From NCBI GenBank assembly GCA_963709325.1, contig CAVPVV010000003.1:2561147-2625146 (forward strand): 64,000 nucleotides of DNA, in the 5' to 3' direction. This stretch comes from an uncultured Acidobacteriota bacterium (lineage in GTDB: Bacteria > Acidobacteriota > Vicinamibacteria > Vicinamibacterales > UBA2999). Positions within the stretch are counted from its first letter, which is position 1. Each line of letters opens with the position of its first letter. Shown here piece by piece: positions 22,623 through 52,086 of this stretch. The notes below the pieces were generated by a model. It was not told the DNA's origin. It ran no database searches and saw only the letters and a program-made list of their open reading frames with translations. The position numbers and the translations under genes were made by a program.

Positions 22623-23564
22623 TCACGCGGCTCCCGTATGCTCGACGACGTCGAGGAAGACGTCCTCGAGCGACGGCATGACCCGACTGACGGATCGCAC
22701 CTCGATGCCGGCGCTGGCCAGAGTGCGCGTCACCGCATCCTCGGGATCCGCGTCGCCGCGCAGCACGGCGTGGACTGCGGTACCAAACAGGCTGGTCTTC
22801 TCCACGACGGGTTGGCGATCGAGCGCTTCCATCGCGGCTACGGGCTGCGCCGCCTGCACCTCGACGATCGGCCGATCGCGGAACACCTGCTTCAATTCCG
22901 TCGTCGTGCCGAGCGCGGCCAGCTTGCCGGCGTGGATGATGGCAATGCGATGGCAGTGTTCGGCCTCGTCGAGATAGTGCGTGGTGACGAGGACGGTCGT
23001 GCCGCCTTCGGACATCTGGTCGATGAGATCCCAGAACTGCCGGCGCGACACCGGGTCTACGCCGCCGGTCGGCTCGTCGAGAAAAACGATCGACGGCTCG
23101 TGGAGAATGGCGCACCCGAGGGCGAGGCGCTGGCGCCACCCGCCGGGCAGGTCGCGGGTCAGCGCGTTCTCGCGGCGCTGCAGTCCAGCCATCTCGAGCA
23201 CGAACCGCCGCCGCTCGGCGAAGCGCTCCCCGTGCAGCCCGTAGATGCCGCCGAAGAATTCGATGTTCTGATCGACCGTGAGCAGCTCGTAGAGCGAGAA
23301 CCGCTGCGACATGTAGCCGATCCGCCGCTTGACGCCCTCCGGATCCTTCGCGACGTCGATACCACCGACCAGCGCGGTGCCGCTCGAGGGCTTGAGGAGC
23401 CCGCACAGCATCCGGATGGTGGTGGACTTGCCGGCGCCATTGGCCCCGAGAAAGCCGAAGATTTCACCGCCCTTGACCGAAAAGGACAGATCGTTCACCG
23501 CGACGAAGTCGCCGAATCGGCGGGTGAGGCCGCGCACGTCGATGGCGCTTGCTGGAGTGGTCAC
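22623..23564 (-). CDS. ABC transporter ATP-binding protein
   Basis: Walker A GANGAGKST, signature LPGGWRQRLAL, Walker B IVFLDEPT. Confidence 0.9.
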   Translation of the reverse strand: MTTPASAIDVRGLTRRFGDFVAVNDLSFSVKGGEIFGFLGANGAGKSTTIRMLCGLLKPSSGTALVGGIDVAKDPEGVKRRIGYMSQRFSLYELLTVDQNIEFFGGIYGLHGERFAERRRFVLEMAGLQRRENALTRDLPGGWRQRLALGCAILHEPSIVFLDEPTGGVDPVSRRQFWDLIDQMSEGGTTVLVTTHYLDEAEHCHRIAIIHAGKLAALGTTTELKQVFRDRPIVEVQAAQPVAAMEALDRQPVVEKTSLFGTAVHAVLRGDADPEDAVTRTLASAGIEVRSVSRVMPSLEDVFLDVVEHTGAA

Positions 23565-24934
23565 GGGCGTCCAAGAGCGCGCTCGAGGCGCGCTTCGGCC
23601 AGCCGGACACCAGCGAGCGCGCGGGCCCGCGCCAGTTCGGCGCCGAGGAGCTGTTCCTGCGCGACGAGGACGTCGGTCGTGGTCGCCACGCCGACGGCAA
23701 GACGCTCGGCCAGCACGCGACGCGCTTCGGCAGACGCGCGCACGCCGGCCTCGGAGGCGCGAACGGCGGCCTGGCTGGATCTGAGATCGAGAAGCCGCTG
23801 CCGGATCTCGGCCGAGACGACGGTGTCGAGCTCTTTCTGTCGCGCGTCGATGGCGCGGGCGGCGGCGGCCGCTTCAGCAACTTCCGCCTTGGTTCGGCCG
23901 CTGTCGAAGATGTTCCACGACATGCTCAGCGACACGTCCCACGACGTCTGCCAGATGTCTTCGCGGGGGAAGATCTTCGGGTTCGGCTTCGCGAAGTCGT
24001 AGCCGCCGCCGAGCGCGAAGTTCGGCCGCCGGCCTTTCGACGCCGCCTCTTCCCGAGCCTGTGCGCCTTCGAAGCGCAAGGCCAGGGCGCGCAGTTCCGG
24101 CCGCTGTTTCAAGGCTTCCGCGACGAGGGGCGCAGTATCTGCCTCGCTCTTTACATTTGTCATGGGGACTGTCCCCTGAGTCGCGGCGGCTCGGGGGACT
24201 GTCCCCCCTGGCGAGTCGAGGCTGTCGGCGAGCTCGATCACGGCGTCGGGCGGGGCGCCGATCAGGCGGCGGAGATCGATCAGGTTCGACTCGAGCAGGT
24301 TGTTCGCTTCGATCAGCTGCAGCTCCTCGCTCGATCGCTGGGCCTCGAAGGTCAGCACGTCGCTTGGCGGAACCAGCCCGACCTCGAGCCGCTGCCGCGC
24401 GTCACCCACCTGCGCGTCAGCGCGGGCGACGCCTTCCTCGAGGACGCGGACCGCTTCGCGTGAGGTGACCACCGCCCAGTAGGCGCGCGTCACCTCGAAA
24501 CGGAGATCGGCTCGCGCGGTATCGAGATCCGCTCCCGCGGCCTCGGCCTCGGCGGAAGCGGCGCGCTCGAGCGCGTCGAGGCGTCCGGCGGTGTAAATCG
24601 GCCACTGCGCGGCAACGCGGGACGTGAAGTTGTCCGGCACGTCCGGGTAGAGGATGTTGAGACGGCCATCCGGGGTTGGAAACCCGAACGGCTCCACGTG
24701 GTTGGTCCGCATGTAACCGGCCATCGCAGATGCGGTCGGGCGCGACGACGACTGCCGGACTTCGACGGTCGCGCGCGCGCCTTCCTGCCGCGCCTCGGCT
24801 TCAGCGAGGCGATGACTGGTCTCAAAGGCGCGGCTGACCGCCTCGCCAACCGTCAGGCGCAGCGGCGGCTCCTGCGCCAGCACCGCCGCAGAACCGGCGA
24901 ACACGAGTGTCACGAACAGGTCGGCGCGGGTCAT
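23561..24934 (-). CDS. TolC-family outer membrane efflux protein
   Basis: 457 aa with a signal peptide and two-repeat OEP architecture. It has 4-nt overlaps with both flanking ATPase genes. Confidence 0.8.
   Translation of the reverse strand: MTRADLFVTLVFAGSAAVLAQEPPLRLTVGEAVSRAFETSHRLAEAEARQEGARATVEVRQSSSRPTASAMAGYMRTNHVEPFGFPTPDGRLNILYPDVPDNFTSRVAAQWPIYTAGRLDALERAASAEAEAAGADLDTARADLRFEVTRAYWAVVTSREAVRVLEEGVARADAQVGDARQRLEVGLVPPSDVLTFEAQRSSEELQLIEANNLLESNLIDLRRLIGAPPDAVIELADSLDSPGGTVPRAAATQGTVPMTNVKSEADTAPLVAEALKQRPELRALALRFEGAQAREEAASKGRRPNFALGGGYDFAKPNPKIFPREDIWQTSWDVSLSMSWNIFDSGRTKAEVAEAAAAARAIDARQKELDTVVSAEIRQRLLDLRSSQAAVRASEAGVRASAEARRVLAERLAVGVATTTDVLVAQEQLLGAELARARALAGVRLAEARLERALGRP
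24164..24208. repeat. Two copies of the palindrome GGGGACTGTCCCC inside the TolC-family CDS (in-frame)
   Basis: Copies at 24164-24176 and 24193-24207. They are translated as PGGTVPRAAATQGTVP. An adjacent unusually AT-rich stretch (acaaatgtaaagag) is also present. Confidence 0.8.
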
Positions 24935-47492: not shown

Positions 47493-49922
47493 ATGCGGAC
47501 GCTCGGCCGAATTCTGTTGGCCCTTCTCGTCCTCATGGCTGGTGTGATCGTCGCCGGCGGCTGTTACACGCGCGCCCAACTGCGCGGCAGCCTGCCGGTG
47601 CTGGACGGCAACATCACGATGAACGGCTTGTCGGCGAAGGTCACGGTGACCCGCGATGCGCTCGGGGTCCCGTCGATCGCCGGCGCGACGCACGCTGACG
47701 TCGCACGGGCGCTGGGCTTCCTTCACGCCCAGGATCGCTTCTTCCAGATGGACCTGCAGCGCCGTCAACCGGCCGGCGAGCTGGCCGCGCTCGTCGGAGC
47801 GCGCGCGGTCCCGGTCGACGCGGAGGTGCGCGTCCACCGCTTTCGACACGTCGCCCAGGAGGCCCTGGCCAAGGCCAGTCCCGAATGGAAGGCGTTGCTC
47901 GAGGCGTACGCTGCCGGCGTGAACGCAGGCCTGCACTCCTTGTCCGCGCCGCCGTTCGAATACCTCCTGCTCCAGGCGACGCCCGAGCCGTGGAAGCCCG
48001 AGGATTCGATCCTCACCGTGCTGGCAATGTTCTGGACGCTGCAGGGACGCCAGGCGGCGTTCGAGGAAACCAACCAGCAACTGCGCGACGCGCTTCCCGA
48101 GCCGCTCTTCCGGTTCCTGGCCGTCGTCGGGTCGGACTGGGACGCGCCTTCAGTCGGTCACCTCGCATCGCGGCCGGCCGTCCCCGGACCGGAGATTGCG
48201 GATCTGCGCGGCAACTCACCGGCAATCAGAGCGGTCGCACACAAGGATGCAAGTGTCGCTGCGGCCGGGACGTTCGACGAGCAGGCCGCGCTGATCGGCT
48301 CGAACAACTGGGCCGTTGACGGAGCGCACAGCGCCACCGGCCGCGCGATTGTCGCCAACGACATGCACCTGTCGATCGGCGTGCCGAACATCTGGTATCG
48401 CGCGTCAATGGCCTGGCCGGATCCGGCGGAGCCACTCGCCACGCTGCGCCTCGGCGGGGTCACGCTTCCAGGGCTCCCGGTCACCGTGGTCGGCAGCAAT
48501 GGACATGTCGCCTGGGGCTTCACCAACACCGGCGGCGACTGGAGCGATCTGGTACGCATCGAGCCGGACCCACGCGATCCGTCGCGCTATCTCACGCCCA
48601 CCGGACCGATGTTGTTCGACCTTGGCGACGAGCAGATTGCGGTCAAGGGCGGGGCTCCGACCACGATCGCGGTGCGCGGCACCATCTGGGGGCCGATCGT
48701 CTGGAAGGACGCCGAGGGGCGAGAGTACGCGCAGCGATGGATCGCGCACGATCTGGCGCTCCTCGCCACCGATCTCGATCGGCCGGAGCGGACGCGAACC
48801 GTGGACGAGATGGTGGTTGCCTTGGTGGGCCTGGGACTGCCGAATCAAAACGTGACCGCGGGGGACTTGAGCGGACGAATTGCCTGGACGGTTGGAGGCG
48901 CGATTCCGAAGCGTCGCGGCTTCGACGGATTCACGCCCGAGTCGTGGGCCGACGGATCGCGCGGGTGGGACGGCTTCCTCGAAGCCGGCGACTACCCACG
49001 GCTCAGCGATCCGAAGGCGGGCCGGCTCTGGACGGCAAATGCGCCGGTGGTGGACGGTCCAGGACTCGCGGCGATTGGAGATGGCGGCTATGCGGACGGC
49101 ATCCGCGCGCGCATCATCCGCGATCGGCTGTTGGAGATTCCGAAAGCGACGCCCGAGCAGATGCTAGGCGTACAGCTCGACAACACCGCGCTCTTTCTCG
49201 AACGGTGGCGCCGTGTCGCGCTCGACGTGCTGGCCGTGGGTGCGGCTGCCTCGCCAGCGGATCGCGCGGCGGCGCGGCGTGAGTTCAAGCGGCTCGTCGA
49301 GACCACGTGGACCGGTCACGCGTCACCTGAATCCGAAGCCTATCGCCTCGTGCGTACTTTCCGCCTGCAGGTCGTGAAACGCGTCCTCACGTTCGTGACC
49401 GCAGCGGCCGCGGCAAAGGACTCGTCGTTCGACTACACGCGCGCGATGCGCACCGAGGGCCCGGTCTGGACGCTCGTGTCCGAGCGCCCGATGCACCTGC
49501 TGGATCCGCAGTTCAGGAACTGGGACGAGCTGCTGCTGGCGGCGGTAGACGCGGCGATCGACGAGCTCACCGAAGGAGGAAAGCCCCTCGCGGGCCGTAC
49601 CTGGGGCGAGTTCAACCGCGCGCTGATCCAGCATCCGCTGTCCAGCGCCGTTCCACAGCTCGGGCGCTGGCTGAACATGCCGCAGGACCCGTTGCCCGGC
49701 GACGCCTACACGCCGCGCGCGCACGCGCCGCGCACCGGTCCGTCCGAGCGCATGGCCGTCTCACCTGGCGACGAAGCGCACGGCATCCTGCACATGCCGA
49801 CCGGCCAGAGCGGCCACCCGCTATCGCCGTACTTCGGCGCCATGCACAAGGCCTGGGTCGACGGGTCGCCAGTGCCGTTCCTCCCCGGCCCTGCTGTTCA
49901 TACGCTGACCTTCGTTCCGTAG
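47493..49922 (+). CDS. Penicillin acylase family Ntn-hydrolase (possible acyl-homoserine-lactone acylase)
   Basis: 809 aa with a signal anchor. The N-terminal nucleophile context is ALIGSNNWAVDGAHSATGRAIVANDMHL. Confidence 0.85.
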   Translation: MRTLGRILLALLVLMAGVIVAGGCYTRAQLRGSLPVLDGNITMNGLSAKVTVTRDALGVPSIAGATHADVARALGFLHAQDRFFQMDLQRRQPAGELAALVGARAVPVDAEVRVHRFRHVAQEALAKASPEWKALLEAYAAGVNAGLHSLSAPPFEYLLLQATPEPWKPEDSILTVLAMFWTLQGRQAAFEETNQQLRDALPEPLFRFLAVVGSDWDAPSVGHLASRPAVPGPEIADLRGNSPAIRAVAHKDASVAAAGTFDEQAALIGSNNWAVDGAHSATGRAIVANDMHLSIGVPNIWYRASMAWPDPAEPLATLRLGGVTLPGLPVTVVGSNGHVAWGFTNTGGDWSDLVRIEPDPRDPSRYLTPTGPMLFDLGDEQIAVKGGAPTTIAVRGTIWGPIVWKDAEGREYAQRWIAHDLALLATDLDRPERTRTVDEMVVALVGLGLPNQNVTAGDLSGRIAWTVGGAIPKRRGFDGFTPESWADGSRGWDGFLEAGDYPRLSDPKAGRLWTANAPVVDGPGLAAIGDGGYADGIRARIIRDRLLEIPKATPEQMLGVQLDNTALFLERWRRVALDVLAVGAAASPADRAAARREFKRLVETTWTGHASPESEAYRLVRTFRLQVVKRVLTFVTAAAAAKDSSFDYTRAMRTEGPVWTLVSERPMHLLDPQFRNWDELLLAAVDAAIDELTEGGKPLAGRTWGEFNRALIQHPLSSAVPQLGRWLNMPQDPLPGDAYTPRAHAPRTGPSERMAVSPGDEAHGILHMPTGQSGHPLSPYFGAMHKAWVDGSPVPFLPGPAVHTLTFVP

Positions 49923-50019
49923 GGGGGACAGTCCCCCTATTCGATCCGACTCAATGGCCTTATACGACACGACTCAGGGGACTGTCCCCCTATGCGACCC
50001 AACTAGGGGGACTGTCCCC
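49923..50019. repeat. Three copies of the palindrome GGGGACWGTCCCC in a 97-nt intergenic array
   Basis: Copies at 49923-49937, 49977-49990 and 50006-50019, with related spacers (CTATTCGATCCGACTCA / CTATGCGACCCAACTA). The array starts immediately after the acylase stop. Confidence 0.85.
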
Positions 50020-50034
50020 AGTTGCGGGTCGCCG

Positions 50035-50538
50035 TCACCAGCGGATGCGGAGCAAGGGGCGGACAGGAGAGGGTGGTGGACTCGTGCCGCCGGGTGGCGC
50101 CGGGCGGACGCGATAGAGAGGCTGACGCGATGTGTTTGCGCGATCGAGCAAGTAACCGACCGTGCCGTACGAGATGACGGCGCTCGCTACGAGGGTTCCC
50201 TGCGACTCGGGCAGCTCCGAGGCAACGAGCAGGCCCATGATCAGGCCGATGGCCGCCCCCTTCAGCGTCCCGTCCAGCGTCGAGTCTCGCACGCGATCGA
50301 CTGTAAACACGGCGTCGCGCTGCATGACGATGGACTGCGCGCCGGTGCTGAACGTCACTTCAAGGTCGTCGGCGTCCACCAGGTTCAGGCGGCGCTCTTG
50401 TCCATTCGCATCGGTGACGTAGACCTCCTGCCCCAGCGCTTTCTGCAGACGGGCAAAATCCGCCAGCCGTGCCGGCGTGAGCGTTGGATCGGGAACCGAC
50501 ATGATCCCGAATATGAGCGGCATGATCAGGTATCCCAT
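50035..50538 (-). CDS. Hypothetical small membrane protein
   Basis: From ORF 50035..50598. ATG 50538 gives MGYLIMPLIFGIMSV (a TM segment), and a second hydrophobic segment GAAIGLIMGLLVA is present. No domain recognised. Confidence 0.45.
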   Translation of the reverse strand: MGYLIMPLIFGIMSVPDPTLTPARLADFARLQKALGQEVYVTDANGQERRLNLVDADDLEVTFSTGAQSIVMQRDAVFTVDRVRDSTLDGTLKGAAIGLIMGLLVASELPESQGTLVASAVISYGTVGYLLDRANTSRQPLYRVRPAPPGGTSPPPSPVRPLLRIRW

Positions 50539-50634
50539 GGCGTCCTCCAGGCTCGAATTCGCGAGCCAGGGCCACGGTAGCCCCCGCGGTAGACGCAAGT
50601 CCTGAGAGCGGCCTGAGAAAGGATGAAGAATCGT

Positions 50635-52086
50635 TCACGCCGCTCGCGACGCGATCGCGACCAGAAGCGGGCGCAGCCGTTCGTGGCCGTGAAGCGGCAG
50701 GAACATCGGATCCGCGGCCAGGCTCCACGCGGTCGGCCCAGCGGGAGCGTCCCTCATCAGCGTATCCAGCGCGTCGCACGCTTCCGCCGGCCGGTCGGTC
50801 CACGCCAGCAGCGCCGCGCGGATGAGCGTGGCGTCCGACGTCTTCGGGCCGGACGACATCTCACCCAGGGCGCGTTCGACGGCCGCTGCGCGAGAACCAG
50901 GGGACAGTCCCCTTACCCTTTTCGCAAGGGGACTGTCCCCACTTGCCAGATGCAGGCCGAGGGCGCCGCGGGCCGCGCCGGGATTCAGCGACTCTGCCAG
51001 CTCGAACGCGGTCGCAGCTTCCTGACGCTGGCCGAGCCGGACATGATGGAAGCCGGCCGAGGTCGCCGCCAGCCACTGGAACTCGCGCGCGAACAGCCCT
51101 GACGGGCTCTGCTCCGTCTCGGCTGCAAACGCGGCGACCGCCTCGTCCATTCGATCGGTGGCGGTCGCCACTAAACCTCGCATCCAGTGCAGGCCCGCCA
51201 CCGGCAGCACTGCTGTCCCGGGCTGCGCGTCCTGGATGCGCGCGCCGGCGTCGGCTTCGGCGCCAGCCCGATCCCACGCGCCGCGGGCGACGAACACCAT
51301 CGCCGACAGCAGGTGGGCCGCGGCGCACGACGGCGACAAGGCCAGCGCACGATCGGCCGCCCGCAGACGGTCCTCGCCCCAGCACGCCAGCGCCAGTCGA
51401 AATTGGTGGCGCCAGCTGTCCGGCTCCAGCGCCACCGCCCGCCGCGCCGCTGCCTGCGCATCGTCACGCCGGCCAGCCAGCGCCTGCGCGTGTGCCATCA
51501 CCGCCCAAGCCTCGCCGAGGCGCGGGTCGATCTCGGCAGCTCGCCGCGCCGCGGCGAGCGCCGCCTGCACGAGCGCCATGTCCGGACGGTTCGTCAATCG
51601 CGTGGCTTCGAACCCGACAACGCACGCGTTGGCGACGCCGGCGTGAGCCGGCGCGTAGTCGGGCATTGCCGTCGCGGCCGCCTCCATCGCCGCGCGGGCC
51701 TCAACGAGGCGGGTTGGATCGAGCGACTCGAGGGCAAGGCGGCCCTCCACCCAGAGCCGGAACGGATCACCGCTCGCGGCCTCAGTGGCCGACACCCCGA
51801 TGAACCGGTAGCCGCGCCTCGCCAGCGTCTGGATCACCCGCGGCTGGTCGGCGGGATCGCCGAGCGCCTTCCGGATGTCGGCGATCGCCCGCGCCAGCGT
51901 GTTCTCGGTGACGTGCACGTCGGGCCAGAAGCGATCGAGCAGCTCCTCTTTCGTAGCGATCGCGCCGTTGCGCTCGACCAGGTAAACGAGGATCTCGACC
52001 AGCCGCGGCGACAGTTCGATCGGGTCGCCGTCGCGGGACAGCGTCCACGTCCGGATGTCAACGGCAAACGGCCCGAAGCGAACCAT
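50635..52086 (-). CDS. OmpR/PhoB-type winged-helix DNA-binding protein fused to a TPR/BTAD-like domain
   Basis: N-terminus is FGPFAVDIRTWTLSRDGDPIELSPRLVEILVYLVERNGAIATKEELLDRFWPD...TLARRGYRF. The rest is alpha-helical repeats. Confidence 0.8.
   Translation of the reverse strand: MVRFGPFAVDIRTWTLSRDGDPIELSPRLVEILVYLVERNGAIATKEELLDRFWPDVHVTENTLARAIADIRKALGDPADQPRVIQTLARRGYRFIGVSATEAASGDPFRLWVEGRLALESLDPTRLVEARAAMEAAATAMPDYAPAHAGVANACVVGFEATRLTNRPDMALVQAALAAARRAAEIDPRLGEAWAVMAHAQALAGRRDDAQAAARRAVALEPDSWRHQFRLALACWGEDRLRAADRALALSPSCAAAHLLSAMVFVARGAWDRAGAEADAGARIQDAQPGTAVLPVAGLHWMRGLVATATDRMDEAVAAFAAETEQSPSGLFAREFQWLAATSAGFHHVRLGQRQEAATAFELAESLNPGAARGALGLHLASGDSPLAKRVRGLSPGSRAAAVERALGEMSSGPKTSDATLIRAALLAWTDRPAEACDALDTLMRDAPAGPTAWSLAADPMFLPLHGHERLRPLLVAIASRAA
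50900..50940. repeat. Two copies of GGGGACWGTCCCC inside the wHTH-TPR regulator CDS (in-frame)
   Basis: Copies at 50900-50912 and 50928-50940. They are translated as SGDSPLAKRVRGLSPG, a different reading frame through the palindrome than in the TolC gene. Confidence 0.8.

Follow-up and report, generated by a model that had tools for sequence, protein, structure and literature searches.

What is an array of three perfect palindromes lying directly behind an acylase gene, and why does the same sequence recur inside two protein-coding genes of the same 64-kb window, by which we mean the whole stretch of DNA analysed here? The DNA is that of a bacterium of the Vicinamibacterales (Acidobacteriota). 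An exact search for the 13-nt palindrome GGGGACWGTCCCC returned seven copies in the 64 kb (at 24164, 24194, 49924, 49977, 50007, 50900, and 50928), in agreement with the count in the earlier note. Dinucleotide-preserving shuffling of the window (100 shuffles) gave an expectation of 0.00 copies per window, and an estimate from composition gave ~0.01 copies per 64 kb. An origin of the copies by chance or composition was thereby ruled out (7 observed versus ~0 expected), and the earlier view of a dispersed repeat element rather than a chance cluster held. The copies are dispersed over three loci, as two dimers and one cluster, and a search allowing up to two mismatches across the window found zero additional copies. 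Relatives carried 1-4 palindrome copies per 9-14 kb. Searching the whole window against Rfam at the gathering threshold gave zero matches, and a literature search with the literal 13-mer and its 11-mer core returned nothing beyond unrelated eukaryotic and primer sequences.

All three copies of the array fit into the 112 bp that separate the stop codon of the acylase from a convergent gene. The acylase ORF (47493-49922, plus strand) is of the penicillin-amidase family (Pfam Penicil_amidase), and its stop codon, TAG at 49920-49922, abuts the array; an exact-protein look-up returned no record for the acylase, nor for P0030. Copy 1 is a 15-bp perfect palindrome with a central A, GGGGGACAGTCCCCC (49923-49937), which begins one base past the stop. 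Copy 2, GGGGACTGTCCCC, has a central T and was placed by exact search at 49977-49989. Together they form a convergent (A..T) doublet at 49923-49990 with a 40-nt spacer and 14 paired bases. Copy 3, whose 13-mer lies at 50007-50019, is part of a longer imperfect hairpin, gcgacccaact.GGGGGACTGTCCCC.agttgcgggtcgc (49994-50032), the end of which is 2 bases short of the stop codon of the convergent gene (50035-50598, minus strand). A repeat finder showed the spacers 3' of copies 1 and 2 to be related, in units of 28-30 nt at 80-86% identity plus a partial unit without the palindrome. The spacer at 49938-49976 consists of two related ~17-nt units, ctattcgatccgactca and ccttatacgacacgactca, and looks like a unit from which the palindrome was lost. 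The earlier note had described an array directly after the acylase stop, with related spacers and between convergent genes, and each of these points was confirmed.

The final codons of the acylase, CCG TAG (49919-49922), put GTAG, the canonical "foot" of REP sequences, directly against copy 1. The seven copies are preceded by the tetranucleotides tcat, ctcg, gtag, ctca, ctag, acca, and gcaa, and we take the GTAG as a coincidence because it is absent at the other six.

Examination of related genomes revealed that the array is syntenic. Segments L207:4038-4153, L208:2703-2818, and L209:10021-10116 are orthologous to window positions 49923-50034, and in all three related contigs the convergent layout was called, with the regulator gene followed by a gene of 166-167 residues facing the acylase gene. 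The latter gene, small and conserved, is always found between the regulator and acylase genes, and its window version has no Pfam match. In the closest relative (91%) the array copies are all decayed, one of them having a central C, and a more distant relative (72%) has a pair of exact copies plus a third that differs at one position. Between these genomes the array spacers diverge strongly. The triple array is, in short, one more non-autonomous cluster, and relatives have it at this locus in a partly decayed state. The earlier suggestion that it might be the "master" form of the element could not be upheld, as the window has no Y1 transposase gene and the autonomous form found elsewhere is a Y1 gene bracketed by palindromes. 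A CRISPR-like array was also considered and ruled out. CRISPR arrays have repeats of 23-55 bp and unique spacers of similar size, usually in many units with cas genes nearby; here the repeat is 13 bp, the units are three, and the spacers resemble one another. No cas-like genes were noticed among the ORFs and Pfam matches examined.

As DNA, copies 1 and 2 were predicted to fold at -18 kcal/mol (z -4.4) and copy 3 with its flanks at -13.8 kcal/mol (z -4.4), and as RNA the whole array gave a z of about -3.8 on both strands. Strong RNA hairpins on both strands, exactly between two convergent stop codons and at a locus where three related contigs also have an array, would suit a bidirectional terminator or RNA-stabiliser cluster that is selected between the convergent genes, with the intragenic copies being incidental. 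REP sequences of Escherichia coli stabilise upstream mRNA, and provide a precedent for the stabilising role. However, a terminator scan of positions 49500-50500 gave 0 terminator-like sites; the tails are ctattc, ctatgc, and agttgc, and because no T/U run follows any stem the array hairpins are not canonical (Rho-independent) terminators. Identical copies are moreover read through in frame in two genes, both of which remain intact in relatives, so the "terminator cluster" of the earlier note was rejected in its canonical sense. Nor would a local terminator explain the decay of all three array copies in the closest relative, the recurrence of the 13-mer in many phyla, or its presence beside transposase genes. 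We therefore regard selection of the array for termination or RNA stability as unlikely. Any effect on the two convergent transcripts is likely a by-product only, inferred to arise from 3'-end hairpins that would stall exonucleases or RNA polymerase.

The remaining four copies lie within genes, and the intragenic pairs described in the earlier note proved to be real and in frame. One pair is in a 457-residue ORF of the TolC family (23561-24934, minus strand) having two OEP halves by Pfam. It is a direct doublet (T,T; period 30) at 24164-24206, located in the linker between the OEP halves and translated as GTVP-RAAATQ-GTVP. The doublet gave a predicted 51-nt hairpin with one central mismatch and a DNA fold of -19.8 kcal/mol (z -5.3). 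Where this gene has 2 copies, relatives at 85% identity have a single one, and the two versions differ by 30 bp (10 residues). Exact GTVP was found in the linker of 27 of 120 TolC orthologues, and nowhere else in 51,815 residues. At the same site, an orthologue with 85% identity to the window carries GGGGACAGTCCCC, which is exact (L126), one with 76% carries GGGCACAGTCCCC (L124), and one with 65% carries gtaacCGGGACTGTCCCGgttac (L125). The last is a 23-bp perfect palindrome in which two end bases have changed in a compensatory way (cGGGACTGTCCCg). In the TolC orthologues, the rare threonine codons ACA and ACT preserve the central A or T of the palindrome. Retention of these codons at the palindrome center and the compensatory end changes argue for a constraint on the DNA itself. 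In P0186, a TolC homologue with 95% identity, the stretch between the palindromes corresponding to window positions 24150-24215 is in another frame (GGQPPSRCDSGDSPHDN versus GGTVPRAAATQGTVPMTN), and the sequence diverges downstream. Either a pair of frameshifts, in the G/C runs of the palindromes, or a misassembly there would account for this.

The second intragenic pair is in an ORF for a winged-helix/TPR regulator (50635-52086, minus strand; domains by Pfam). It is a convergent doublet (A..T; period 28) at 50900-50940, in frame within the TPR part and translated as GDSPLAKRVRGLSP (GDSP...GLSP). Its 15-nt arms are 100% complementary, and the DNA fold was predicted at -18.2 kcal/mol (z -8.2). 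Folding of an inverted doublet into one long hairpin is a trait of REP/REPIN elements, and was seen for this doublet and for that of the array (49923-49990); the direct doublet at 24164-24206 also folds. The regulator doublet is an insertion of ~42 bp compared to orthologues lacking it, and in most of the regulator orthologues whose identity is 72% or less, ~14 residues are missing exactly where the 41-bp doublet lies. Among orthologues in that range the doublet is missing from all except P0243. It is also present in P0242, and the 91%-identical P0241 has three copies. The orthologue alignments thus show that the intragenic pairs entered the genes as DNA insertions rather than being motifs native to the proteins.

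Could all these copies be the immobile, decaying relics of a transposase since lost, surviving solely by inheritance, by slippage or duplication on the spot, and by selection acting on the proteins they now encode? Relatives with as little as 65% protein identity have copies at these sites, degenerate versions are found in many orthologues with the exact peptide confined to the TolC linker, copy number shifts by 27-30 bp at a time, as would fit slippage, and neither the window nor the related contigs examined yielded a transposase gene. Yet the window holds seven exact copies and none with 1-2 mismatches, which argues for recent spread or homogenisation, and the conserved codons and compensatory ends in the TolC orthologues point to constraint on the DNA itself. 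We consider such a purely relict origin improbable.

A known family with which the palindrome can be compared is that of the TIRtrons, in which a RAYT-like gene (TIRYT) has on either side terminal inverted repeats that share the sequence GGGGWSAS; some of the repeats form moderately abundant families in dimers or clusters, some are self-complementary, and one such family is found in the acidobacterium Koribacter (Di Nocera, De Gregorio & Rocco 2013, PMC3733652). The TIRYTs have been equated with TnpAY1 subclass 2.1, with the consensus GGGG[AT][CG]A[CG] and the signatures NH[VYF]H (HuH), W[EQ] or FQ, and Y[IV]ELNP or Y[IV]HLNP, and no REP-like sequences were reported for the subclass (Quentin et al. 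2018, PMC6006769). They have also been called Group 1 RAYTs, the most widely distributed RAYT group, with flanking 16-mers that are modestly repeated (Bertels et al. 2017, PMC5581495). In the window, GGGGACAG is present on one strand of all 7 copies and fits GGGGWSAS. The latter motif as such is not enriched in the window (14 matches versus 19.7 expected), and 7 of the 14 matches are the palindromes. By sequence, the 13-mer GGGGAC-W-GTCCCC reads as two such end motifs placed head to head.

The distribution of paired copies was surveyed in one genome per GTDB species, with two copies of the 13-mer required 10-40 bp apart, and at least 119 loci were found. The pair loci listed come from Atopobiaceae/Coriobacteriales, Planctomycetota, Vicinamibacteria, Solirubrobacterales, Bacillaceae, Lachnospiraceae, Prevotella, Kiritimatiellia, Omnitrophota, Patescibacteria, and others, and the GC content of carriers among the matches listed ranges from 36 to 81%. 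Among the loci listed, the 13-bp core is constant and the flanks are genome-specific, often lengthening the palindrome; they extend it by at least 3 bp in 16% of 319 listed copies versus ~1.6% expected. Convergent A..T pairs outnumber divergent T..A pairs by 50 to 7 among the matches listed, and by 23 to 5 (p = 0.0009) after similar spacers among these matches were collapsed. Judged by sequence, the favoured A..T doublet has the arrangement of a TIRtron minus its gene. Only 5 palindrome loci were found in 2.9 million viral contigs, so phages are no obvious vehicle.

The survey also returned several forms worth recording. In the Planctomycetota, eight MAGs (L002, L031, L033, L089, L092, L099, L113, and L118) carry a near-identical element of ~73 bp, aaaaaGGGGACAGTCCCCatttgtgcgaagcaccctccgggccgttccggcaaatGGGGACTGTCCCCttttt (L031:3451-3523, for example), which adjoins conserved large ORFs in several loci. 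The element has the look of a doublet family that spans the lineage and conserves its spacer. Odd array forms were seen at L054:1755-1793, L013:6349-6473, L010:878-1030, and L082:2251-2346, one of them having three abutting 13-mers with a period of 13, and the others four or five copies with a period of 28 and alternating 15-nt spacers, superficially CRISPR-like. In a MAG labelled Solirubrobacteraceae, the flanks of a doublet at L101:2554-2660 (gcgactcaGGGGAC...) resemble the Vicinamibacterales unit GGGGACAGTCCCCtgagtcg; this likeness could reflect a shared subfamily or a binning error.

The perfect 13-bp dyad symmetry would also suit an operator for a dimeric DNA-binding regulator or a nucleoid protein, with the array acting as a multi-site operator. 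Pair spacings peak at 28, 33, 39, and 50 bp among the matches listed, and the clustering of center-to-center distances at 28, 39, and 50 bp gives steps of about one helical turn; one doublet, furthermore, is within the gene of a winged-helix regulator. The sites, however, are at the 3' ends of genes and in coding regions instead of at promoters, their number differs between close relatives, and a symmetric dimer would not impose the orientation bias of the central base. The same core is found at 36-81% GC in many phyla, and among the loci listed its only shared neighbors are Y1 transposases. An operator function is accordingly very improbable. What stands of the "protein-binding site array" in the earlier note is a likely target of a Y1 transposase; the pattern does not match a transcription-factor regulon.

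That association emerged when ORFs from the 119 palindrome loci listed were clustered all-against-all. The only informative cluster was a small group of IS200-like Y1 transposases; other neighbors shared between the listed loci were just generic families (ABC ATPases and low-complexity ORFs) and one neighborhood specific to Planctomycetota. A family HMM for Y1 found four genes in 0.88 Mb (4 of the 119 loci listed), each of them beside a palindrome. The palindrome-adjacent genes match Pfam Y1_Tnp and contain the NHxH and Y..NP motifs, and they score 68-80 bits with the NCBIfam model REP_Tyr_transpos (REP-associated tyrosine transposase), for which the cutoff is 80. Their motifs, NHFH/WQ/YVERNP in L096, NHLH/FQ/YIHLNP in L074, and NHIH/FN/YIHYNP in L051, are close to the published signatures of subclass 2.1.

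Exact copies of the 13-mer are found on both sides of the Y1 gene in L096 (Planctomycetota), L051 (Eubacterium), L121, and L212/L213, representing three phyla; we counted the bracketed lineages as four, and took L051 and L121 as one related Clostridia lineage. In L121, tgtacaaatGGGGACAGTCCCCatttgtaca lies 57 bp before the start of the Y1 gene and the version with a central T lies 10 bp after its stop. In L212 (3688-6094), as in L213, the palindrome brackets the Y1 gene and the next gene together; these loci were called Bacillaceae-like from the family of P0021 and the GC content. The second gene there is a ComM/YifB-like Mg-chelatase gene starting at the stop codon of the Y1 gene, and in L212 one palindrome copy is 313 bp upstream and an inverted copy is 16 bp past the second gene. 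Upstream copies alone were found in L015 (Kiritimatiellae), with four copies and the Y1 gene cut by the contig end, and in L074 (Neobacillus), about 170 bp from the Y1 gene.

The analysis also covered 80 metagenomic loci encoding homologues of these genes. On the gene strand, GGGGAC was observed 48 times upstream versus 5.1 expected, in 36 loci, and ranked first among upstream hexamers by locus count and second by ratio, after TAGGGG (13.6x, 10 loci). Downstream, GTCCCC was the most enriched hexamer, with 47 observed versus 7.4 expected in 35 loci. The exact 13-mer itself was present in just 1 of the 80 loci, and other homologues have different repeats which nonetheless contain GGGGAC or GGGGTC. 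The transposases flanked by the 13-mer are only ~30% identical to each other, and P0040, a relative with 56% identity, has a different repeat; the distribution of the 13-mer hence disagrees with the protein tree. Its occurrence in 1 of the 80 loci ruled out the idea that one transposase clade goes with one REP; what is shared is the half-site GGGGAC.

In the 64-kb window, tblastn and an HMM search found no Y1 transposase gene, and none was present in the Vicinamibacterales contigs examined. Since the window lacks the gene, the tie to a transposase in this genome is drawn by analogy, and we infer from the bracketed genes elsewhere that a Y1 transposase of TIRYT type mobilises, or once mobilised, the copies found here. 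Taken as a whole, the evidence makes it probable that the palindromes are a non-autonomous REP/REPIN-like family derived from TIRtron terminal inverted repeats. The 13-mer when single-stranded, with extended flanks or as a convergent doublet, would fold into a hairpin that the transposase could recognise and cut, copying or moving singles, doublets, and short arrays around the chromosome. Inserted copies persist long at the same locus, gaining or losing units of 27-30 bp and decaying, and proteins tolerate those that land in frame in flexible linkers, where they are translated as GTVP, GDSP, or GLSP. On this reading the triple array is such a cluster, made of a convergent doublet and an extended single hairpin.

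The likeness to TIRtron terminal repeats lies in the GGGGWSAS motif, in the inverted flanking of a Y1/HUH gene (seen here in other genomes), in moderate abundance as singles, dimers, and clusters with some self-complementary members, and in reports from the Acidobacteria (Koribacter) and many other phyla. In contrast to those repeats, the present one consists of no more than two end motifs abutting in a 13-bp perfect palindrome, its identical core recurs in many phyla beside transposases that are ~30% identical, and copies have become fixed within reading frames and are shared by orthologues; for the subclass, moreover, no REP-like sequences were reported in 2018 (PMC6006769). With the REP/REPIN-RAYT systems of the Proteobacteria (Group 2 and 3; TnpA-REP of E. 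coli) the family shares short hairpin repeats, often as inverted doublets, clusters between convergent genes, persistence at orthologous sites, and association with a Y1 transposase that is usually single-copy and has its own repeats on both sides. Unlike them, it lacks the conserved GT[AG]G foot (GTAG is seen at copy 1 only) and has its conserved motif, GGGGAC, inside the stem; the copy density is apparently lower, and the transposase is of a different subclass. The intragenic copies resemble Rickettsia palindromic elements (RPE) and intragenic REPs in being palindromic inserts that are in frame, tolerated in loops or linkers, and translated, whereas RPEs are 100-150 bp and CGTC-tagged and the inserts here are 13-42 bp. 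To our knowledge, RPEs have no known transposase. The repeat family is in these respects largely ordinary, and the unusual twist is that some copies are in frame inside genes. What goes beyond the literature is that a 13-bp perfect palindrome made from two end motifs recurs in many phyla, and that the in-frame copies in Vicinamibacterales appear, from the orthologue alignments, to be long persistent and constrained at the DNA level.

For the organism, the copies in the TolC linker and the TPR regulator mean that repeats add short peptide segments to proteins and that such in-frame repeats can be retained across genus-level divergence. This is of use in annotating Acidobacteriota MAGs, in which recurrent GTVP or GDSP peptides may be met in predicted proteins. 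For the transposases, the Group 1 RAYTs or TIRYTs are the most widespread of the RAYT type, yet the definition of their DNA partners is poor, and a large survey reported none that were REP-like. We know of no biochemical demonstration of TIRYT activity on any substrate, and the 13-bp palindrome, found beside such genes in four phyla and on both sides in three, offers a concrete and cheap test substrate. A bolder proposal, which we put forward only tentatively and hold to be rather doubtful, is that GGGGAC-W-GTCCCC is the minimal, near-universal substrate of this RAYT group, the largest and the least well understood (TIRYT/subclass 2.1), selected at the DNA level even in Vicinamibacterales coding sequence. 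Constraint by the enzyme on the GGGGAC half-site would then explain why the palindrome arose several times over in unrelated phyla. If true, this would mean that the copies have a host-level role as hairpins, or undergo continuing transposase-driven homogenisation, and are not mere junk.
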